Virus record (IMG/VR): IMGVR_UViG_2603880148_000004
Strand: one strand, 5' to 3'
DNA: 37,740 nucleotides
Origin: a virus
Lineage: Duplodnaviria > Heunggongvirae > Uroviricota > Caudoviricetes
The translations under genes were made by a program, and so were the position numbers. Under the pieces are notes generated by a model. The model saw only the letters and a list, made by a program, of their open reading frames with translations, was not told the origin of the DNA and did not search any database. Of this stretch, positions 1 to 29,894 are shown piece after piece. Within the stretch, counting starts at the first letter, position 1, and the number at the start of each line of letters is the position of its first letter.

Positions 1-252
1 CGTCTTCTGAGCCTGCTGTCGGCCTTTGAGGTCGTGGTATGGATGACGGATGGCTGGCCGCTGTATGAATCACGCCTGAAGGGAAAGCTGCACGTTATCA
101 GCAAGCGTTACACTCAGCGCATTGAGCGACATAATCTGAATCTGAGACAACATCTGGCAAGGCTGGGACGGAAGTCGCTGTCGTTCTCAAAATCGGTGGA
201 GCTGCATGACAAGGTCATCGGGCATTATCTGAACATAAAACACTATCAGTAA
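1..252 (+). CDS. insB: IS1 transposase InsB, C-terminal fragment (N-terminus lies outside the window)
   Basis: Frame open from position 1; translation ...[72 protein letters not shown] matches IS1 InsB C-terminus from memory. Confidence 0.85.
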
Positions 253-267
253 GTTGGAGTCACTACC
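1..267 (+). mobile_element. Partial IS1 (right-end portion), cut by the window edge; end of IS1 near 267
   Basis: Region encodes the InsB C-terminus; sequence ...aaacactatcagtaagttggagtcactacc matches my recollection of the IS1 terminus; inverted copy of 37472-37740. Confidence 0.85.
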
Positions 268-346
268 AGAAAGTTAGGTAAGTACATTAAAATTATCTAT
301 CCTGAACGAAGCGTCCTGAGCTATGGTTTTACTATAGAGACTGCCA

Positions 347-670
347 ATGGATGCTGGCGTTCTCGTTCTAGCAGTTCAACAATACCCAATCACAAAACAA
401 TTCACTGATAACGAACTTTGCACACTCGCCTGGTTATGGCGAGCAGGGAATGTGATGTTAATTACCTACCAGAACGTTACTCCTCTTCTTCAGGTTGCGG
501 AGCATCGTGAAGCTGGTCGCTTCACTTCTATCGAGCAAGAATATCCCCAGATACTCAATAAGGCACAGGCAATCCTTGCCAGAGAAACGGCACATGTAAA
601 ATTCCGGCCGTGGCAGGATGATAAGTGGAGTCGAGTTTTGCCGCATTTACGTTCGGATCGATTACAGTAG
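347..670 (+). CDS. Hypothetical protein, 107 aa; no recognisable family
   Basis: ORF only; in-frame stop just upstream (335-337); weak RBS; overlapped by antisense ORFs of similar size. Confidence 0.3.
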   Translation: MDAGVLVLAVQQYPITKQFTDNELCTLAWLWRAGNVMLITYQNVTPLLQVAEHREAGRFTSIEQEYPQILNKAQAILARETAHVKFRPWQDDKWSRVLPHLRSDRLQ

Positions 671-1131
671 ATTCCAATTAACAATGAGAAACACATAGCC
701 ACCCCGTGGTATTGAAACCATATAATGTTGGATTTGAAAACAGATCTTTTTCCATGTATTAATAACTACATCCCCGCGAGTGATTCAAAAAGGAGGGCCC
801 AATTTTGTCCGAGTTTTTGTATTCCCCCGCATGCCGCTGCGGAGCACTACATCTGAGTGTCTGACTAGGGGATAAAATTAGACTGGATAGTGAGAAGAAA
901 GTGGCGTGCTAGGCTGTGCCGAGTGCTACCAGTACACCCTGGGGGTGTGCAGCTTTCGCCGAGACTGTAGTGGGTATCGGTTAATGCACGAAAAACCGAG
1001 AGGTCAGACAACCAATTTGCCGTAGGATTGTTTCCGGTGCGATACCGGTGTACTAACTGAAAGCAATGCGAAAAAGCATAAACTCGGTCCTTCAGTCGCC
1101 CTACACACTATTTACTAAGAAGGGCTAAAGC

Positions 1132-1488
1132 ATGGATACAATTATCACATGGATGGGAGATCGTCTGTTGGGGTGGATAACAAACAAATCCGATCTGCGG
1201 CAGAGGGCAATCACTGGATTAACTCCTGCGATTTATTCAACAATTTTATATACTGAAAAATTAAAACGTGGTGAGCCTAATAACCCAAACGAAGAAGAAA
1301 AACTTTATAGGCTTTGGTATGAAGCGTCTTCCCAAGTCGTAGACTTTGATCGAGAGCTGGCTAAAAGATGTTTAGATAAATCAGAATATTGGCTTCATTC
1401 TGAATTATATAGCCCTGAGAAAGTTGGAGAGCTAAACATTTCTTTGGTTGGTATGAAGGCAACGCTTGAAGGAATAAAGCACAATTAA
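1132..1488 (+). CDS. Hypothetical protein, 118 aa, AT-rich orphan gene
   Basis: ORF with plausible RBS (aaggg) upstream; visibly AT-rich codon usage compared with neighbouring phage genes; no recognisable family. Confidence 0.5.
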   Translation: MDTIITWMGDRLLGWITNKSDLRQRAITGLTPAIYSTILYTEKLKRGEPNNPNEEEKLYRLWYEASSQVVDFDRELAKRCLDKSEYWLHSELYSPEKVGELNISLVGMKATLEGIKHN

Positions 1489-1675
1489 AACCTTTGATTT
1501 GCGATAATCAACTCGCCATAATCATGTCATCGGAGCCTGAACAACTCCGGTGACTTCTGCGCTAAACGGGGACGTTTATGCGCACACACAATCCAAACTC
1601 TCTTCTCCCTCCACAGATGCAGAAATGCACCTGCGATATATTGTATCCAGCGTTTGACCTCTGCGGAGGTGAAGC

Positions 1676-2131
1676 GTGAATCTCCCACAAGATGGCATCA
1701 AATTACATCGCGGTAACTTCACCGCTATCGGTCGGCAGATCCAGCCTTATCTGGAGGAGGGCAAATGCTTTCGCATGGTGCTTAAACCGTGGCGTGAGAA
1801 ACGCAGTCTTTCCCAGAATGCACTCAGCCACATGTGGTACAGCGAAATCAGTGAATACCTCATCAGCAGGGGGAAAACGTTCGCTACTCCAGCTTGGGTA
1901 AAAGATGCTCTCAAACACACATATCTCGGTTATGAAACCAAAGACCTGGTTGATGTTGTAACCGGTGATATCACCACTATCCAGTCGTTACGCCATACCT
2001 CCGATCTTGATACCGGAGAGATGTATGTCTTCCTGTGTAAGGTTGAAGCCTGGGCGGTGAATATTGGCTGCCACCTGACTATTCCGCAGAGCTGCGAGTT
2101 CCAGCTGCTCCGCGACAAGCAGGAGGCGTAA
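1676..2131 (+). CDS. ybcN: YbcN-like nin-region protein (DLP12 YbcN family), 151 aa
   Basis: GTG start with RBS ggaggtg; translation [15 protein letters not shown]... matches K-12 DLP12 YbcN as I recall it; followed by ninE-ybcO-rusA as in DLP12. Confidence 0.8.
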
Positions 2132-2301
2132 TGGCTACACCGCTTATTCGTGTCATGAACGGACACATCTACAGAGTACCAGATCGTCGTAAGCGTAAAC
2201 CGGAGCTGAAGCCTTCCGAAATACCAACACTGCTCGGATATACCGCCAGCCTGGTTGATAAAAAATGGTTGCGACTGGCAGCAAGGAGGAATCATGGCTG
2301 A
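2131..2301 (+). CDS. ninE: NinE-like protein, 56 aa
   Basis: Manually translated small [59 protein letters not shown]; start overlaps ybcN stop (TAATG); conserved nin-region position. Confidence 0.7.
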   Translation: MATPLIRVMNGHIYRVPDRRKRKPELKPSEIPTLLGYTASLVDKKWLRLAARRNHG

Positions 2302-2584
2302 TTTGAGAAAAGCAGCGCGTAGTCGGGAATGCCAGGTAAGAATCCCTGGCGTATGTAATGGCAACCCTGAAACGTCTGTACTGGCACATATCCGGCTGAC
2401 TGGATTGTGCGGCACCGGTACCAAACCGCCAGACCTGATTGCCACCATTGCATGTTCTGCCTGCCACGACGAAATCGACCGCCGCACACATTTTGTCGAT
2501 GCTGCATATGCAAAAGAATGCGCGCTGGAAGGTATGGCGAGAACACAGGTTATCTGGCTGAAAGAGGGGGTTATTAAGGCGTGA
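2294..2584 (+). CDS. ybcO: YbcO-like nin-region protein (putative nuclease), 96 aa
   Basis: ATG at 2294 preceded by RBS aaggagga; [28 protein letters not shown]... with Cys-rich motif; DLP12 gene order. Confidence 0.8.
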
Positions 2585-2943
2585 ATACTTACCACATCAC
2601 ACTACCCTGGCCGCCGAGCAATAACCGCTACTACCGCCATAATCGAGGGCGCACGCACATCAGCGCAGAAGGGCAGGCATACCGCGATAACGTCGCCCGA
2701 ATCATTAAAGGCTCAATGCTGGATATCGGTCTGGCTATGCCTGTGAAAATCCGCATTGAGTGCCACATGCCGGATCGCCGTCGCCGTGACCTGGATAATC
2801 TGCAAAAAGCCGCTTTTGACGCACTCACTAAAGCAGGTTTCTGGCTGGATGATGAGCTGGTCGTTGATTACCGCGTTGTGAAGATGCCTGTTACCAAAGG
2901 TGGGAAGCTGGAACTGACCATCACTGAACTGGGAGATGAATGA
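2581..2943 (+). CDS. rusA: RusA Holliday-junction resolvase, 120 aa
   Basis: [26 protein letters not shown]... matches E. coli RusA from memory; length 120 aa. Confidence 0.9.
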
Positions 2944-3080
2944 TGTTTGAGTCTTATATGGCAGAACGTCTTCGCCGCCGCTGGGTGCGCCTGCGCTTAT
3001 ATCGTTTCCCCGGTTCTGTTTTGACCGATTACCGAATACTGAAGAGTTACGCCAAAACCCTGACAGGAGCAGGAGTATGA
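2940..3080 (+). CDS. ylcG: YlcG-like small protein, 46 aa
   Basis: Manually translated [46 protein letters not shown]; overlaps rusA stop; DLP12 gene order. Confidence 0.6.
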
Positions 3081-3165
3081 AGTCAGAGATAACAATCAAC
3101 TAATACTGTTTTGTTGATTTTTGCTTGTAATTGGCGTTTTGGTCTGATTTTTGTGGAGTAAGTTG

Positions 3166-3549
3166 ATGCGTGATATTCAGATGGTTCTTGAGCGTTGGGG
3201 AGCGTGGGCGGCTAATAATCATGAAGATGTGACCTGGTCGTCCATTGCCGCCGGTTTTAAGGGATTAATTCCTTCAAAAGTAAAATCTCGCCCGCAATGT
3301 TGTGACGATGACGCGATGATCATTTGCGGGTGCATGGCCCGTCTGAAAAAGAACAACAGCGATTTGCACGATTTATTAGTAGATTATTATATAGTCGGTA
3401 TGACATTCATGTCACTGGCAGGTAAGCATTGCTGCTCTGATGGTTATATCGGGAAAAGGTTACAAAAGGCTGAGGGCATAATTGAAGGGATGTTAATGGC
3501 ATTAGATATCCGGTTAGAGATGGATATCGTTGTTAATAACTCTAATTAA
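3166..3549 (+). CDS. quuD: Late-gene antiterminator Q (QuuD type), 127 aa
   Basis: ATG at 3166 with RBS ggagt; [24 protein letters not shown]... matches DLP12 QuuD from memory; Cys-rich zinc-binding motif; placed before lysis genes. Confidence 0.85.
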
Positions 3550-3570
3550 TACGCCAATTATTTACTAAAA

Positions 3571-3601
3571 GTTATTAAAAATGGGGCGTTGAAACGCCCC
3601 C
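3571..3601 (-). terminator. Putative intrinsic terminator for the minus-strand porin transcript
   Basis: Hairpin ggggcg/ttgaaa/cgcccc; on the minus strand it is followed by a T-rich run (atttttaat). Confidence 0.4.
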
Positions 3602-3688
3602 AAAAATAAAGGGTAATATATAACAGAAGATTTGTATAGTTAGAAGCAAGGTTGTGCTTCTAAAGGAAGTGGCTTGAGGGAGCCACTT

Positions 3689-3726
3689 ATATGTTGGGGA
3701 GGCAAAGCCTCCCACAACATATCTTT
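3689..3726 (+). terminator. Near-perfect palindrome, possible plus-strand terminator (tR'-like) or bidirectional terminator
   Basis: atatgttggggagg-caaag-cctcccacaacatat followed by ctttt; lies between Q and the 3' end of the porin gene. Confidence 0.3.
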
Positions 3727-3737
3727 TAGTAATCAAA

Positions 3738-4820
3738 TTAGAACTGGTAAACCATACCTACAGCAACGATATCATCGGTAGCAACGCCAGATGCTTTCGT
3801 GAAATCGCTCTTATCAATCAGGTTGATTTTGTAGTCAACAAAAGTGGACATATTTTTGTTGAAGTAATAGGTTGCACCTACATCAACATACTCAACCAGG
3901 TCCTGATCACCCCAAACACCCAAGTCTTTTCCTTTAGAATGCAGGTAAGCAACGGATGGACGCAGGCCGAAGTCGAACTGATATTGTGCAACAGCTTCGA
4001 AGTTTTGTGCTTTGTTGGCAATATGGTTATTACCAAAAACAGTCATGTTCTGGGTTTCAGAATAGGTGGTGGCCAGATAGATGTTGTTCGCATCATATTT
4101 CAGACCAGCTGCCCATACTTCAGCATTTTGACCAGAAGCATTCAGACCGTTGTTACCGTAGATAACCTGATTATTAGTGCGATCAGATTTAGCATAGGTT
4201 GCACCCACGCCGAATCCTTCATACTCATAAGTAGTTGAGAAACCGAAACCATCGCCATTAGCTTCAGTTACTTCATTTCGGTCATTTTTGCCCTGATACT
4301 GAGCTGCAAAGTTCAGGCCATCAACCAGACCAAAGAAGTCGTTGTTACGATAAGTTGCAACACCTGTGGTGCGACCAGTCATGAATACATCTGTTTGGGT
4401 CCAGGTATCGCCACCGAATTCTGGCAGAACGTCGGTCCATGCACCAATATCGTATGCTACACCGTAGTTACGGCCATAATCGATGGAGCCGTAGTCACCG
4501 AATTTCAGGCCAGCGAAGGCAAGACGGGTTTTATCTTTGGAGGAACCTTGAGATTCAGCGCGGTTGCCTTTGAATTCATATTCCCACTGACCGAAACCAG
4601 TCAGTTGATCGTTGATTTGGGTTTCACCTTTGAAGCCAAGACGGGCATAAGTAGTATCACCATCATCTGCATCATTAGAGGAGAAGTAGTGCTTAGCATT
4701 AACTTTCCCGTACAGATCCAGCTTGTTACTGTCTTTATTATAAATTTCAGCTGCCTGAGCAGACATCGCCATCAGTACTGATGCAGCTACAGCAGAAATT
4801 GCCACTGTTAATTTTTTCAT
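3738..4820 (-). CDS. nmpC: Outer-membrane general porin, NmpC/Lc family (lysogenic-conversion porin), 360 aa
   Basis: [23 protein letters not shown] signal peptide then [16 protein letters not shown]... and C-terminal ...VGMVYQF typical of OmpC/NmpC porins; start chosen at MKK (4820), not the upstream in-frame extension. Confidence 0.9.
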
Positions 4821-5245: not shown

Positions 5246-5272
5246 AAACCCGCCGTCGAGCGGGTTTTTTTG
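5246..5272 (+). terminator. Rho-independent terminator (candidate tR'-like terminator before the late genes)
   Basis: Hairpin acccgc-cgtcga-gcggg followed by seven T residues on the plus strand. Confidence 0.55.
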
Positions 5273-5738: not shown

Positions 5739-6791
5739 ATGAAAAATACTGTGAAAATAAACAGTGCTGATTTAATCAACGCTGATTGCCTGCATTTTAT
5801 TCAGTCCCTGCCTGATGATTCCATTGACCTGATTGTTACCGATCCGCCGTACTTCAAGGTGAAACCCAACGGTTGGGACAATCAGTGGAAAGGGGACGAA
5901 GATTACCTGAAGTGGCTGGACCACTGTCTGGCTCAGTTCTGGCGGGGGCTGAAACCTGCCGGAAGCCTTTACCTGTTCTGTGGACATCGCCTCGCATCTG
6001 ATATCGAGATCATGATGCGTGAACGTTTCAACGTTCTTAACCATATTATCTGGGCGAAGCCGTCCGGACGATGGAACGGGTGTAATAAAGAAAGTCTGCG
6101 CGCATATTTTCCCGCAACAGAACGCGTTCTGTTTGCTGAACATTACCAGGGACCATATCGCGGCAAAAGTGACGGCTATGCGGCAAAAGAAAGTCAACTC
6201 AAACAGCACATAATGGCACCGCTGATTTCGTATTTCAGGGATGCTCGTGCCGAACTGGGTATAACGGCAAAACAGATTGCCGAAGCCACTGGTAAGAAAA
6301 ATATGGTTTCCCACTGGTTTGGTGCCAGTCAGTGGCAGTTGCCGAATGAGGCTGACTACCGGAAGTTGCAGGCACTGTTTTCCCGTATAGCGGCAGAGAA
6401 ATTTCAGGAACAACAACTGGAACAACCACACCACCAGCTGGTGGCATCTTATGATTCACTGAATCGCAAATATTCTGAATTGCTGGATGAGTTTAAAACT
6501 CTCCGGCGCTATTTCTCCGTATCAGTTTCCGTGCCTTATACCGACGTCTGGACGCATAAACCCGTTCAGTTCTACCCGGGTAAACATCCGTGTGAGAAGC
6601 CTGCGGATATGCTCCGGCAAATAATCAGTGCCAGTAGTCGACAAGGCGATCTGGTTGCTGATTTCTTTATGGGATCCGGTTCCACAATAAAAGCGGCAAT
6701 GGCGCTGGGGCGTCGGGCGTTAGGTGTTGAACTTGAGTCAGAGCGGTTTAATCAGACGGTGAAAGAGGTAAGTGAACTGGTGGGGAAATAA
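5739..6791 (+). CDS. Orphan DNA methyltransferase, beta class (N6-adenine or N4-cytosine), 350 aa
   Basis: DPPY motif (LIVTDPPYF) near the N-terminus and FxGxG SAM-binding motif (VADFFMGSGST) near the C-terminus; no adjacent restriction endonuclease gene. Confidence 0.85.
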   Translation: MKNTVKINSADLINADCLHFIQSLPDDSIDLIVTDPPYFKVKPNGWDNQWKGDEDYLKWLDHCLAQFWRGLKPAGSLYLFCGHRLASDIEIMMRERFNVLNHIIWAKPSGRWNGCNKESLRAYFPATERVLFAEHYQGPYRGKSDGYAAKESQLKQHIMAPLISYFRDARAELGITAKQIAEATGKKNMVSHWFGASQWQLPNEADYRKLQALFSRIAAEKFQEQQLEQPHHQLVASYDSLNRKYSELLDEFKTLRRYFSVSVSVPYTDVWTHKPVQFYPGKHPCEKPADMLRQIISASSRQGDLVADFFMGSGSTIKAAMALGRRALGVELESERFNQTVKEVSELVGK

Positions 6792-25747: not shown

Positions 25748-26078
25748 TACGGAAGAATTTCACTGGTTACCAGAGGATGGAATGAAAACAGAAAATAAAC
25801 CATCGATAAAAACTGTAAGATTTGGCGATGGTTATGAGCAACGAAGTCCAAATGGACTTAATCATTCTCTGCGCGTTTTCACCTGTGATTTCAAAGTTGA
25901 GGCGAATGAACGTGATTCATTTGAAAAATTTTTAGCCCGGCATGAAGGCTATAAATCTTTTTTTTGGCGCCCGCCGGGTATTAACAGAAAAATCAGAGTG
26001 GTGTGTCGAACGTGGTCAGCGACAGAACATATCACCTATACCGATTTTTCGTGTCAGTTTGACGAAGTGGTGATCTGA
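25740..26078 (+). CDS. M: Minor tail protein M (lambda M-like), 112 aa from GTG
   Basis: ...TVRFGDGYEQRSPNGLN... and ...WSATEHITYTDFSCQFDEVV resemble lambda M motifs; position after tape measure. Confidence 0.85.
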   Translation: MANTEEFHWLPEDGMKTENKPSIKTVRFGDGYEQRSPNGLNHSLRVFTCDFKVEANERDSFEKFLARHEGYKSFFWRPPGINRKIRVVCRTWSATEHITYTDFSCQFDEVVI

Positions 26079-26776
26079 TGCAGGACATACAACAGGAAAC
26101 GCTGAATGAATGCATTCGTGCGGAGCAGTCGGCCAGCGTGGTGCTCTGGGAAATCGACCTGACCGAGGTAGGCGGGGATCGCTACTTTTTCTGTAATGAG
26201 CAGAACGAAAAAGGTGAGTCTGTCACCTGGCAGAGTCGGCAGTATCAGGCCTATCCCATTCAGGGGAGTGGATTTGAGATGAACGGCAAGGGCAGTGCTG
26301 CCCGTCCGACACTGACGGTCTCTAACCTGCACGGCATGATCACCGGGATGGCGGAAGATCTGCAGAGTCTGGTCGGCGGGACGGTGGTCCGGCGTAAGGT
26401 TTACGCCCGCTTTCTGGATGCGGTGAACTTCGTCAACGGAAACAGCGAAGCCGATCCGGAGCAGGAGGTGATCAGCCGCTGGCGCATCGAGCAGTGCAGC
26501 GAACTGAGCGCGGTCAGTGCCTCTTTTGTACTGTCCACGCCGACTGAAACGGATGGCGCTGTTTTTCCGGGACGTATCATGCTGGCCAACACCTGCACCT
26601 GGACCTATCGCGGCGATGAGTGCGGTTATAGCGGTCCGGCGGTCGCGGATGAATATGACCAGCCGACGTCCGATATCACGAAGGATAAATGCAGCAAATG
26701 CCTGAGTGGCTGTAAGTTTCGCAATAATGTCGGCAACTTTGGCAGCTTCCTTTCCATTAACAAACTTTCGCAGTAA
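26078..26776 (+). CDS. L: Minor tail protein L (lambda L-like), 232 aa
   Basis: MQDIQQETLNECIRAEQSASVVLWEIDLTEVGG... near-identical to lambda L as recalled; C-terminal Cys cluster. Confidence 0.92.
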   Translation: MQDIQQETLNECIRAEQSASVVLWEIDLTEVGGDRYFFCNEQNEKGESVTWQSRQYQAYPIQGSGFEMNGKGSAARPTLTVSNLHGMITGMAEDLQSLVGGTVVRRKVYARFLDAVNFVNGNSEADPEQEVISRWRIEQCSELSAVSASFVLSTPTETDGAVFPGRIMLANTCTWTYRGDECGYSGPAVADEYDQPTSDITKDKCSKCLSGCKFRNNVGNFGSFLSINKLSQ

Positions 26777-26781
26777 ATCCC

Positions 26782-27525
26782 ATGACAGAGACAGAATCAG
26801 CGATTCTGGCGCACGCCCGCCGATGTGCGCCAGCGGAGTCGTGCGGCTTCGTGGTGAAAACGCCGGAGGGAGAAAGATATTTTCCCTGCGTGAATATCTC
26901 CGGTGAGCCGGAGGAGTATTTCCGGATGTCGCCGGAGGACTGGCTGCGGGCAGAGATGCAGGGTGAGATTGTGGCACTGGTCCACAGTCACCCCGGTGGT
27001 CTGCCCTGGCTGAGTGAGGCCGACCGGCGGCTGCAGGTGCAGAGTGATTTGCCGTGGTGGCTGGTCTGCCGGGGGGCGATTCATAAATTCCGCTGTGTGC
27101 CGCATCTCACCGGGCGGCGCTTTGAGCACGGGGTGACGGACTGTTACACGCTGTTCCGGGATGCTTACCATCTGGCGGGAATTGAGATGCCGGATTTTCA
27201 TCGCGGGGATGACTGGTGGCGTCACGGTCAGAATCTCTATCTGGATAATCTGGAGGCCACAGGGCTGTATCAGGTGCCGTTGTCAGCGGCGCAGCCGGGC
27301 GATGTGCTGCTGTGCTGTTTTGGTTCATCGGTGCCGAATCATGCCGCCATTTACTGCGGCGACGGCGAGCTGTTGCACCATATTCCTGAACAACTGAGCA
27401 AACGAGAGAGGTATACAGACAAATGGCAGCGACGCACACACTCCCTCTGGCGTCACCGGGCATGGCACGCATCTGCCTTTACGGGGATTTACAACGATTT
27501 GGCCGCCGCATCGACCTTCGTGTGA
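26782..27525 (+). CDS. K: Tail tip assembly protein K (lambda K-like; MPN/JAMM and NlpC/P60-like motifs), 247 aa as the longest ORF
   Basis: MTETESAILAHARRCAPAESCGFVV...HSHPGG... lambda K-like; the 3' end overlaps gene I by 103 nt. Confidence 0.88.
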   Translation: MTETESAILAHARRCAPAESCGFVVKTPEGERYFPCVNISGEPEEYFRMSPEDWLRAEMQGEIVALVHSHPGGLPWLSEADRRLQVQSDLPWWLVCRGAIHKFRCVPHLTGRRFEHGVTDCYTLFRDAYHLAGIEMPDFHRGDDWWRHGQNLYLDNLEATGLYQVPLSAAQPGDVLLCCFGSSVPNHAAIYCGDGELLHHIPEQLSKRERYTDKWQRRTHSLWRHRAWHASAFTGIYNDLAAASTFV

Positions 27526-28094
27526 AAACGGGGGCCGAAGCCATCCGGGCGCTGGCCACACAGCTCCCGGCGTTTCGTCAGAAACTGAGCGACGGCTGGT
27601 ATCAGGTACGGATTGCCGGGCGGGACGTCAGCACGTCCGGATTGACGGCGCAGTTACATGAGGTTCTGCCTGACGGCGCTGTGATTCATATTGTTCCCAG
27701 AGTCGCCGGGGCCAAGTCAGGGGGCGTATTCCAGATTGTTCTGGGGGCTGCCGCCATTGCCGGATCATTCTTTACTGCCGGAGCCACCCTTGCAGCATGG
27801 GGGGCAGCCATTGGGGCAGGTGGTATGACCGGCATCCTGTTTTCTCTCGGTGCCAGTATGGTGCTCGGTGGTGTGGCCCAGATGCTGGCACCGAAAGCCA
27901 GTACCGCAACAACGACCAGCACGGATAACGGTAAGCAGAACACGTATTTCTCGTCACTGGATAACATGGTTGCCCAGGGCAATGTTCTGCCTGTTCTGTA
28001 CGGTGAAATGCGCGTGGGGTCACGCGTGGTTTCTCAGGAGATCAGCACGGCAGACGAAGGGGACGGTGGTCAGGTTGTGGTGATTGGTCGCTGA
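27423..28094 (+). CDS. I: Tail tip assembly protein I (lambda I-like), 223 aa
   Basis: MAATHTLPLASPGMARICLYGDLQRFGRRIDLRVKTG... matches lambda I from memory. Confidence 0.9.
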   Translation: MAATHTLPLASPGMARICLYGDLQRFGRRIDLRVKTGAEAIRALATQLPAFRQKLSDGWYQVRIAGRDVSTSGLTAQLHEVLPDGAVIHIVPRVAGAKSGGVFQIVLGAAAIAGSFFTAGATLAAWGAAIGAGGMTGILFSLGASMVLGGVAQMLAPKASTATTTSTDNGKQNTYFSSLDNMVAQGNVLPVLYGEMRVGSRVVSQEISTADEGDGGQVVVIGR

Positions 28095-28154
28095 TGCAAA
28101 ATGTTTTATGTGAAACCGCCTGCGGGCGGTTTTGTCATTTATGGAGCGTGAGGA

Positions 28155-29894
28155 ATGGGTAAAGGAAGCAGTAAGGGGCATACCCCGCGCGAAGCGAAGG
28201 ACAACCTGAAGTCCACGCAGCTGCTGAGTGTGATCGATGCCATCAGCGAAGGGCCGGTTGAAGGTCCGGTGGATGGATTAAAAAGCGTGCTGCTGAACAG
28301 TACGCCGGTGCTGGACAGTGAGGGGAATACCAACATCTCCGGTGTCACGGTGGTGTTCCGGGCAGGTGAGCAGGAGCAGACACCGCCGGAGGGATTTGAA
28401 TCCTCCGGTTCCGAGACGGTGCTGGGTACGGAAGTGAAATACGACACGCCGATCACCCGGACCATCACGTCTGCAAACATCGACCGTCTGCGCTTTACCT
28501 TCGGTGTGCAGGCACTGGTGGAAACCACCTCAAAGGGTGACCGGAATCCGTCGGAAGTCCGCCTGCTGGTTCAGATACAACGTAACGGTGGCTGGGTGAC
28601 AGAAAAAGACATCACCATTAAGGGCAAAACCACGTCGCAGTATCTGGCCTCGGTGGTGGTGGATAACCTGCCGCCGCGACCGTTCAATATCCGGATGCGC
28701 AGGATGACACCGGACAGCACCACAGACCAGCTGCAGAACAAAACGCTCTGGTCGTCATACACCGAAATCATCGATGTGAAACAGTGCTACCCGAACACGG
28801 CACTGGTCGGCGTACAGGTGGATTCGGAGCAGTTCGGCAGCCAGCAGGTGAGCCGTAATTATCATCTGCGCGGGCGTATTCTGCAGGTGCCGTCGAACTA
28901 TAACCCGCAGACGCGGCAATACAGCGGTATCTGGGACGGAACGTTTAAGCCAGCATACAGCAATAACATGGCCTGGTGTCTGTGGGATATGCTGACCCAT
29001 CCACGCTACGGCATGGGGAAACGTCTTGGTGTGGCGGATGTGGATAAATGGGCGCTGTATGTCATCGGCCAGTACTGCGACCAGTCAGTGCCGGACGGTT
29101 TTGGCGGTACGGAGCCGCGCATCACCTGTAATGCGTACCTGACCACACAGCGCAAGGCGTGGGATGTGCTCAGTGATTTCTGCTCGGCGATGCGCTGTAT
29201 GCCGGTATGGAACGGGCAGACGCTGACGTTCGTGCAGGACCGACCGTCGGATAAGGTGTGGACCTATAACCGCAGTAATGTGGTGATGCCGGATGATGGC
29301 GCGCCGTTCCGCTACAGCTTTAGCGCCCTGAAAGACCGCCATAATGCCGTTGAGGTGAACTGGATTGACCCGAACAACGGCTGGGAGACGGCAACAGAGC
29401 TTGTGGAGGATACGCAGGCCATTGCCCGTTACGGTCGTAACGTCACGAAGATGGATGCTTTTGGCTGTACCAGCCGGGGGCAGGCACACCGCGCCGGGCT
29501 GTGGCTGATTAAAACAGAACTGCTGGAAACGCAGACCGTGGACTTCAGCGTGGGCGCAGAAGGGCTTCGCCATGTGCCGGGTGATGTCATTGAAATCTGT
29601 GATGATGACTATGCCGGTATCAGCATCGGCGGGCGCGTGCTGGCGGGAAACAGCCAGACCCGGACGCTGACGCTCGACCGTGAAATCACGCTGCCATCCT
29701 CCGGCACCAGGCTGATAAGCCTGGTTGACGGAAGTGGCAATCCGGTCAGCGTGGAGGTTCAGTCCGTCACCGACGGCGTGAAGGTGAAAGTTAGCCGTGT
29801 TCCTGACGGCGTTGCCGGATACAGCGTGTGGGGGCTGAAGCTGCCGACGCTGCGCCAGCGCCTGTTCCGCTGCGTGAGTATTATAACCAGGTGA
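28155..29894 (+). pseudogene. J: Host specificity / central tail fibre protein J (lambda J-like), truncated after 579 codons by the Mu-like insertion
   Basis: MGKGSSKGHTPREAKDNLKSTQLLSVIDAISEGP... matches the lambda J N-terminus; lambda J is about 1130 aa; homology stops near 29882 and the ORF ends in a short unrelated tail. Confidence 0.88.

Follow-up and report, generated by a model that had tools for sequence, protein, structure and literature searches.

The stretch of DNA analysed here (the window) comprises the 37,740 nucleotides (nt) of IMG/VR virus record IMGVR_UViG_2603880148_000004, a member of the Caudoviricetes. Our subject is the segment between the end of an insertion sequence (IS1) copy and the gene ybcN, and in particular an element at positions 770-1100 that very probably functions as a structured RNA. 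An earlier reading of the same letters without database searches (the sequence-only reading) had described positions 268-1675 as an unexplained segment made up of a doubtful open reading frame (ORF), an ORF-free stretch and an orphan ORF. This 1.4-kb segment is now resolved into five defined parts. With ORF positions taken from a program-made ORF list and GC content computed along the window, we obtained the following features (aa, amino acids).

1..267, plus strand: right end of an IS1 copy (DDE_Tnp_IS1, 3.4e-38; NF033558)
347..670, plus strand: 107-aa ORF, C-terminal remnant of an antirepressor-like gene (P22_AR_C, 1.1e-15)
734..762, plus strand: promoter-like signal for the predicted RNA, TTGAAA (734-739), 17-nt spacer, TATTAA (757-762)
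770..1100, plus strand: conserved predicted structured RNA element of about 331 nt (covariance-model match at 768-1101)
770..873, plus strand: 5' domain of the RNA, closed by helix P1 (helices 1-5)
859..865, plus strand: 5' strand of a predicted pseudoknot, GUCUGAC (pairs with 1003-1009)
881..1097, plus strand: 3' domain of the RNA, closed by helix P6 (best-supported helices)
1003..1009, plus strand: 3' strand of the predicted pseudoknot, GUCAGAC (pairs with 859-865)
1132..1488, plus strand: 118-aa ORF, uncharacterised phage protein (phrog_12412, 4.9e-71)
1494..1679, plus strand: phage-82-type segment upstream of ybcN (92% identity to X92588)
1676-2131: ybcN (from the ORF list)

The boundaries given by the sequence-only reading hold. 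The terminal inverted repeat of IS1 stops at 267, with the DDE_Tnp_IS1 match covering 34-249, and all three ORFs that it had placed (the 107-aa ORF, the 118-aa ORF and ybcN) stand at the same positions in the ORF list. The stretch at 700-1130 that it had called free of ORFs indeed contains none of 60 aa or more on either strand, although its true extent is slightly larger (671-1131, 461 bp); within 703-1131 no open frame on either strand exceeds 48 aa. Its description of the gap as moderately GC-rich also agrees with the computed composition (0.52-0.53 over 801-1100). By itself the ORF-free gap is statistically unremarkable, and it is the comparative evidence that lifts it above chance.

Using 671-1131 as the query, we detected the element in 159 of the 5426 complete Escherichia coli genomes, in one copy each and with no annotated feature beneath it. 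It is also present in two E. coli phages, Turner and IdasGreatGrand, and at 78% identity in two Klebsiella phages. Pattern scans identified it in about 65 IMG/VR contigs and 29 metagenome contigs, and protein-anchored look-ups added copies in prophages of Enterobacter bugandensis and Obesumbacterium proteus, as well as a more divergent copy at locus L172 (1116-1447, on the same contig as L178). This last copy is the most divergent intact one and was missed by all motif scans, being reached only through a neighbouring gene, so the RNA family is probably wider than the scans suggest. A two-anchor pattern (GTCTGAC...GGTCAGACAACC) retrieved one new locus (L162), which is coding sequence and was rejected as a false match. 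The element is absent from the species-representative genomes, where the scan returned only two chance matches (Acidobacteria and Ruminococcus), and no match was found among the PLSDB plasmids.

Conservation starts sharply at A770 (AUCCCCGCGAG) and stops at about 1100 (CAGUCGCC), and the length of the element is 332-334 nt across at least 32 distinct variants. The core (770-1100) is 77-100% identical between loci with differing flanking genes, and blocks of 30-50 nt are identical between the phages of E. coli, Klebsiella, Enterobacter and Obesumbacterium, in which the flanking proteins are only 50-80% identical. Two copies (L094 5319-5652 and L177 4024-4357) lack a terminator and have substitutions at otherwise invariant positions (G-to-C in P1, GUCAGAC to GUCAGUC and ACUCGG to ACUAGG); they are probably decaying.

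Folding 31 variants together with RNAalifold gave 82 pairs, 11 of them with compensatory double changes, and the refined model contains 95-97 pairs in about 18 helices and two domains, including a 7-bp pseudoknot. We evaluated this structure on three alignments (A2, A4 and A5, the third of which is biased towards that structure, having been fitted to the covariance model) against controls in which the 3' partners were slid by 1-3 columns and against 500 shuffles. Standard pairs occupy 97.0-97.4% of the cells in the three alignments vs 34-45% in the slid controls, 16-24 pairs are changed on both sides vs 1-8 (24 vs 3-8 for the 97-pair model), and the covariation score is 0.205-0.214 vs 0.04-0.06, a value that none of the 500 shuffles attained. 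By its compensatory and G-U changes, which exceed both the shifted and the shuffled controls, the element belongs to the structured RNAs in the generic sense. When all covarying column pairs were sought by brute force, phylogenetic signal swamped the result, which is why helix-level counts with slid controls were used instead. The alignments also contain hundreds of G-U cells, and many pairs alternate between G-C or A-U and G-U, while A-C is not tolerated; since such alternation is tolerated only if the plus strand is the RNA, we assigned the RNA to that strand.

Helix P1 (770-775 AUCCCC with 868-873 GGGGAU) closes the 5' domain and helix P6 (881-886 GACUGG with 1092-1097 UCAGUC) closes the 3' domain. 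The latter holds the best-supported helices, including the hairpins at 934-948 and 958-981, and helices 9-12 have 3-5 pairs each changed on both sides. The hairpin at 958-981 occurs in six compensated versions (CCGAGAC/GUAUCGG, CCUUCAG/UUGAAGG, CCGAUGUC/GACGUCGG, CCAAAGCC/GGGUUUUGG, CCGUAAC/GUUGCGG and that of L172), and the hairpin at 934-948 is wholly rewritten in L172, from ACACCC/GGGUGU to AAAGCAC/GUGCUUU. The two heptamers of the pseudoknot, GUCUGAC and GUCAGAC, are complementary and otherwise invariant, and 99.6-100% of their cells pair. One terminal pair is changed from C-G to U-A in L172 and the other from G-C to G-U, and L177 has one mismatch. The changes in L172 support the pseudoknot, which is predicted to join the 5' domain to the 3' domain. 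A hairpin proposed by RNAalifold in this region (P13, GGU/ACC around a CAGACA loop) was dropped for the pseudoknot, because a G-to-A change in L172 breaks P13 but is compensated in the pseudoknot.

A covariance model built from the family (334 positions, 90 pairs) gave one full-length plus-strand match in the window (768-1101, 391.9 bits) and one per locus in 33 variant loci. Apart from these, a single match reached E <= 1, a 12-bit fragment (E = 0.099) on the opposite strand of the element in L092, which we treated as spurious, and nothing significant was found in seven control loci, including phage PhiR26_1. One conserved block of the RNA (GACUGGAUAGUG, 881-892) is perfectly complementary over 12 nt to ybcN (1975-1986). 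We rejected ybcN as a target: chance alone would give about 1.4 matches of this kind in the window, and many of the host phages lack ybcN.

No protein-coding gene was recognised in any frame of the element, because no frame is open in all homologs: in all six frames, the longest stop-free run falls to 22-39 codons in some variant. A frame of 61 aa that is open in some variants has 30/30/21 variable sites by codon position, with no excess at the third position.

The sequence upstream of the element is similarly organised in each lineage checked, except for the disrupted loci L060 and L092: a first hexamer, TTGNNN, is separated by 17 nt of variable sequence from a second, A/T-rich one (TATTAA in the window, TTTAAT or TTAAAT elsewhere) that lies 6-7 nt before the conserved A of AUCCCC. 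The signal at 734-762 presumably acts as a promoter with a start near A770, in which case the first nucleotide of the transcript would be the first base of helix P1. In L092 (5553-6807) and also in L060, an IS3-family element (orfA, 103 aa; orfB, 275 aa) splits the upstream signal between its -35-like and -10-like hexamers and parts the RNA from its presumed promoter. A shared operator with the cI/cro region of the prophage (L001) was considered and rejected, as only a 7-mer is common to both and the half-sites are wrongly oriented.

Downstream, most variants other than that of the window have a canonical intrinsic terminator 5-12 nt past the element (e.g. UACCGCCUCAUGGCGGUA followed by U8), with G+C-rich stems of 6-7 bp and 6-8 U (7-8 in most variants). 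These terminators are seen both by RNAfold and by the scanner (e.g. L052 9451-9468 and L012 2162-2187). The stem in L012 is GCCACC/GGUGG, with no matching change in the RNA, and among the terminator variants inspected there is no conserved alternative pairing; a weak GUCGCC/GGCGGU option still leaves a terminator-like hairpin. In the window type and its relatives with the 118-aa gene, there is no terminator between the RNA and the ORF, and the RNA runs into the ribosome-binding site of the ORF. The RNA of the window copy would thus form the 5' part of the 118-aa ORF transcript.

The sequence-only reading had favoured a structured non-coding RNA or a regulatory region over random spacer for this gap. 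The covariation, the lack of a conserved frame, the terminators in most relatives and the single plus-strand covariance-model match per locus all bear this out.

We also searched for the element among known RNAs. Rfam 15 (4227 models, including small RNAs, riboswitches, ribozymes, RNase P, tmRNA and group I/II introns), which the sequence-only reading had named as a check, gave no match for window positions 1-4000 at E <= 1, for 740-1135 at E <= 10 or for the whole window at the gathering thresholds; we take the family to be uncatalogued, and the idea of an RNA is not refuted by this result. The relatives L005, L012 and L156 likewise had no Rfam match on the element, and in L005 the same tool found STnc100 and two tRNAs elsewhere. 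ARAGORN detected no tRNA or tmRNA genes in window positions 1-3000, TRF detected no tandem arrays in 200-1800 (minimum score 30), and in the literature searched we found no description of a structured RNA of lambdoid phages, of the nin region or of phage accessory modules ('morons').

DicF and IsrK are regulatory small RNAs of enterobacterial lambdoid prophages. Further prophage-encoded regulatory small RNAs are AgvB/AsxR (PMC4104026) and StxS (PMC7547250). Like these, the element appears to be an RNA gene that forms an independent unit of lambdoid prophages, usually ends at a terminator and has no fixed protein partner. The known examples are about 50-200 nt long with one to three hairpins and act by Hfq-dependent seed pairing, whereas the element has about 330 nt, about 18 helices and a long-range pseudoknot; in addition, its conserved junctions suggest a compact tertiary fold, and it matches no small RNA model of Rfam.

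ROOL and GOLLD are often found in prophages. Together with OLE, they are large 'ornate' RNAs (PMC12286853), and the element resembles the three in being a large multi-helix RNA without a known biochemical role that is recognised purely by comparative analysis. It differs from them in size and distribution: ROOL, GOLLD and OLE are RNAs of about 580-800 nt that come mostly from Firmicutes and their relatives and assemble into homo-oligomeric cages, while the element is smaller and was identified in Enterobacterales lambdoid phages only. An invariant palindrome (GCAUGC, 829-834) in an unpaired joiner of the 5' domain could mediate RNA-RNA dimerisation, and is the only hint of such oligomerisation in the element.

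ToxIN is a type III toxin-antitoxin system in which an RNA is encoded upstream of a protein. The same arrangement occurs in an Abi locus with an AbiF-associated RNA (PMC12373285). The element shares with both the order of promoter, structured RNA, terminator and small accessory gene as well as the location in an accessory or defence hot spot, but a ToxI-like antitoxin would be accompanied by tandem repeats and a constant toxin gene. The element has neither: it is followed by at least five unrelated proteins or by none, and PADLOC gave no match. Attenuation riboswitches and leaders are also similar in their order of structured RNA, intrinsic terminator and co-oriented coding sequence. In the element, however, the class of the downstream gene is not constant, no antiterminator alternative was seen among the terminator variants inspected, the RNA is much larger, and one copy (L012) has no cargo gene and is followed directly by the nin region.

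A screen across IMG/VR reported 8495 candidate RNAs of DNA viruses with lengths of 29-151 nt (Fremin et al. 2023, PMC10690425). That screen likewise drew on intergenic regions of IMG/VR and on covariation, and single hairpins of the element may be among its candidates; the lengths given there set the element apart, as a two-domain pseudoknotted RNA of 330 nt is not part of that description as far as we consulted it.

The genes around the element differ between loci. We found four upstream contexts (an Ant-like gene, a 164-aa secreted protein (phrog_1848), a MazG-like dATP/dGTP pyrophosphohydrolase and a 200-aa protein) and at least five downstream contexts (the 118-aa gene, a 191-aa protein, a 183-aa protein (phrog_27260), a pair of 95 and 162 aa, and another gene in L094). 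L012 has no cargo gene, and its nin region begins right after the terminator. The replication modules and Q types also vary between loci. Given these differing neighbours, no protein partner is constantly linked to the RNA, and exchange takes place at the 3' end of the RNA, as near-identical RNAs precede different cargo genes (L025 vs L037).

Two of the downstream genes are nevertheless persistent neighbours. All homologs of the 118-aa protein that we looked up with at least 69% identity directly follow the RNA, whereas a homolog with 51% identity is encoded elsewhere without it; the 191-aa gene stays beside the RNA down to 54% identity, and a 43% homolog is again found elsewhere without the RNA. 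The sequence-only reading had regarded absence or disruption of its ORFs in most related prophages as evidence against its view. A deletion of about 140 bp does cut the 118-aa gene to 66 aa in roughly half of the close relatives (L006 4465-4665; about 25 IMG/VR loci), but the RNA upstream of this deletion form is intact and keeps 98-99% identity, so the RNA does not need that protein.

Taken together, we estimate a probability of roughly 0.6 that positions 770-1100 of the plus strand are the gene of an uncatalogued structured RNA of about 330 nt, which would be a self-contained accessory module, or moron, of Enterobacterales lambdoid phages. The narrower claim, that the element is a functional structured RNA at all, we regard as highly probable. 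Judged by its predicted fold and by the searches above, the RNA is a new family that is nearest in kind to the prophage-borne RNA genes and the large structured RNAs of obscure role and is a member of no catalogued family. It would be transcribed from its own promoter-like signal at 734-762, starting near A770, and also within the early-right operon, and its own promoter would allow expression from the repressed prophage, as in other morons. The folded RNA may bind a host or phage protein or a small ligand, rather than serving as an mRNA or as a simple base-pairing small RNA; such a role is suggested by the size of the RNA and its number of helices, by the invariant A-rich joiners and by the fact that no neighbouring gene is fixed. 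A bolder version is offered only tentatively, namely that the element represents a new class of compact pseudoknotted RNA-only accessory gene with its own biochemical role, as a ribonucleoprotein scaffold, a sponge for proteins or ligands, or a ribozyme, in the physiology of the lysogen or in conflicts between phage and host or between phages, distinct from base-pairing small RNAs and leaders.

Several observations weigh against the element being an independent RNA gene. Folded as a single sequence, it has an ordinary energy (z = -0.73 on the plus strand and -0.04 on the minus strand), so that RNA folding, one of the checks named by the sequence-only reading, would not have revealed the structure by itself. 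With at least 77% identity inside alignment A2 (L172 is more divergent) and roughly seven lineages, the family is narrow, which keeps the number of independent compensatory events modest. Many paired columns never vary, and conservation is no higher in unpaired columns than in paired ones (52% vs 62% invariant). The consensus promoter scanner does not call the signal at 734-762, because its second hexamer lacks A2 or T6, and without a called promoter the RNA might only be cut out of the long early transcript. The adjacency of the 118-aa (to 69%) and 191-aa (to 54%) neighbours fits a cis-acting role equally well, and the same applies to the downstream genes starting 20-45 nt past the terminator with no visible promoter of their own (judged by eye at the c41 and c48 junctions, which were not scanned). 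Action in trans and a protein or ligand partner are purely what we infer.

These last points are the basis of an alternative that we consider unlikely, in which the RNA is a 5' untranslated sensor controlling whichever accessory gene follows, via terminator read-through or ribosome access; the cassette would consist of a promoter, a leader of about 330 nt and a terminator or a tail masking the Shine-Dalgarno sequence. The downstream genes are always co-oriented and so close to the terminator that there is no room for a promoter of their own, the tail of the window copy (GCCCU, 1099-1103) can pair with AGGGC (1121-1125), which overlaps the Shine-Dalgarno sequence of the 118-aa ORF, and the 118-aa and 191-aa genes have stayed adjacent while diverging. 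A leader of this type is difficult to reconcile with one conserved RNA ahead of at least five unrelated genes and, in L012, of none, and with an RNA that is unchanged where the 118-aa gene is deleted to 66 aa. The terminators are strong, no alternative antiterminator pairing was seen, the stem in L012 differs without a change in the RNA, and the linker between P6 and the terminator is not conserved. With 330 nt and 18 helices, the element also far exceeds known leaders of such kind. A coding role is less probable still: the RNA could be the mRNA of a 19-residue micro-protein, or a dual-function RNA, with a frame from UUG 805 to UGA 862-864 that opens with MSEFLYSPACRCGALHLSV. A near-perfect and near-invariant Shine-Dalgarno sequence (AAGGAGG, 790-796) stands 8 nt ahead of UUG 805, this block and the first 10 codons are nearly invariant, and a 2-nt indel in L009, L012 and L156 falls in the spacer between the two and leaves a workable distance. 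By codon position, however, the variable sites of the frame number 5/6/4, a UGA interrupts the frame in three variants, L095 and L172 have frameshifts, and GGAGG is changed to GGUGG in L172 and to GUUGG in L177. Moreover, the frame accounts for only 60 of about 330 conserved nt, and the same nt form helices P3-P5.

Conservation at the level of DNA, as a recombination linker, a protein-binding region or a single-strand initiation signal, appears very improbable. Lambdoid phages are known to have conserved sequences at the junctions between modules, the element is located at a junction where neighbouring modules exchange, and break points coincide exactly with its 3' end and, in L004, lie within the loop of the terminator. 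Yet a double-stranded function leaves the compensatory changes unexplained, as well as the strand asymmetry (G-U tolerated, A-C not) and the terminator on the same strand directly after the element, and there are no repeats or iterons. That the element is merely the remains of a decayed gene or a meaningless spacer is hardly conceivable, as the alignment, the covariation and the frame analysis contradict it. The surroundings have certainly decayed (IS1, the truncated antirepressor gene and the often-deleted 118-aa gene), and the copies in L094 and L177 look degenerate; the element itself has a constant length and long blocks identical across hosts between far less similar flanking proteins, with no frame open in all variants and no codon periodicity.

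Large bacterial RNAs with a complex fold and an obscure function are few, and almost none occurs in a genetically easy host. The predicted RNA is found in lambda-like prophages of E. coli, the best-studied phage-host system, in about 3% of the complete E. coli genomes, and is missed by current annotation; the phages Turner and IdasGreatGrand, which carry it, are cultivable. If it is a working RNA, its role (in defence, anti-defence, host takeover, a ribonucleoprotein or catalysis) would be directly testable by standard E. coli and lambda genetics, and an RNA-only module would be added to the phage morons.

The 118-aa ORF downstream of the element is AT-rich (GC 0.365-0.39 over 1101-1500) and has a Shine-Dalgarno-like GAAGG (1119-1123) 8 nt ahead of its ATG at 1132, both as the sequence-only reading had reported. 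It is a real ORF but not an orphan: it matches the conserved phage family phrog_12412 over its full length (4.9e-71, residues 1-118 of 118), and its relatives form 21 clusters among 5.8 billion proteins, all from Enterobacterales. There was no match in Pfam, NCBIfam or PADLOC. The AlphaFold model (predicted local distance difference test score of 78) is a four-helix bundle with generic fold matches only. We considered and rejected a HEPN RNase, as there is no conserved R-x4-6-H motif and the fold matches are those of a generic helical bundle. The other cargo proteins also lack PADLOC, Pfam and NCBIfam matches. The 191-aa protein has hydrophobic, possibly membrane-spanning stretches at both ends (judged by eye), and the 183-aa protein (phrog_27260), encoded past the RNA terminator in Klebsiella phage Kp4856-1 (L005 5416-5967), contains RHNLLH, which fits the R-x4-H HEPN-like motif.

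The 107-aa ORF, whose reality the sequence-only reading had doubted, is part of a recognisable gene. Its sole domain is P22_AR_C, while the full-length form of 249 aa in L010 and L092 combines Bro-N with P22_AR_C, and its PHROG matches are 245 (anti-repressor Ant) and phrog_7640. Intermediate forms have 136 and 202 aa. Homology to the full gene starts near position 360 (the phage match begins at query position 93), so the first codons of the ORF are junction sequence and the ORF is a truncated remnant. As the N-terminal Bro-N domain is absent, the 107-aa ORF, by its domain content, is a truncated and not an intact member of the antirepressor-like proteins with Ant/Bro-N and P22AR_C.

Positions 1493-1675, which had also been counted as unexplained, match positions 49-231 of the phage 82 record (X92588) with 92% identity, including the putative promoter, the inverted repeat and orf33 of that record. 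In the window, the putative -35 and -10 hexamers are at 1494-1499 and 1517-1522, where the promoter scan calls TTGATT-17-CATAAT (1494-1522), and the inverted repeat, 29 bp long and annotated as a possible regulator-binding site in phage 82, is at 1526-1554. The frame orf33 (1578-1679; 33 aa, annotated by RefSeq) overlaps the start of ybcN. In L012, the phage-82-type block is located directly 3' of the RNA terminator.

Over its full length, the segment 268-1675 recurs at 99-100% identity in 95 complete E. coli genomes as well as in Escherichia phage Turner, and its carriers are DLP12-like lambdoid prophages. In relatives without IS1, the segment begins 33 bp past the serine recombinase gene ybcK (in L001, the end of ybcK is at 5968 and the counterpart of window position 268 at 6001) and is followed by ybcN-ninE-ybcO-rusA-ylcG-quuD. 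The equivalent site of phage PhiR26_1 (L003 2190-3692), between ren and the nin genes, has no RNA and holds the defence gene PD-lambda-1 together with an intact Rha gene, which identifies the site as a hot spot for accessory or defence genes. Colinearity of the window with a prophage of E. coli MB56 (97.7%) extends only up to position 5269; beyond this point only two pieces of the tail region match (26056-29881), and the prophage is therefore a mosaic.

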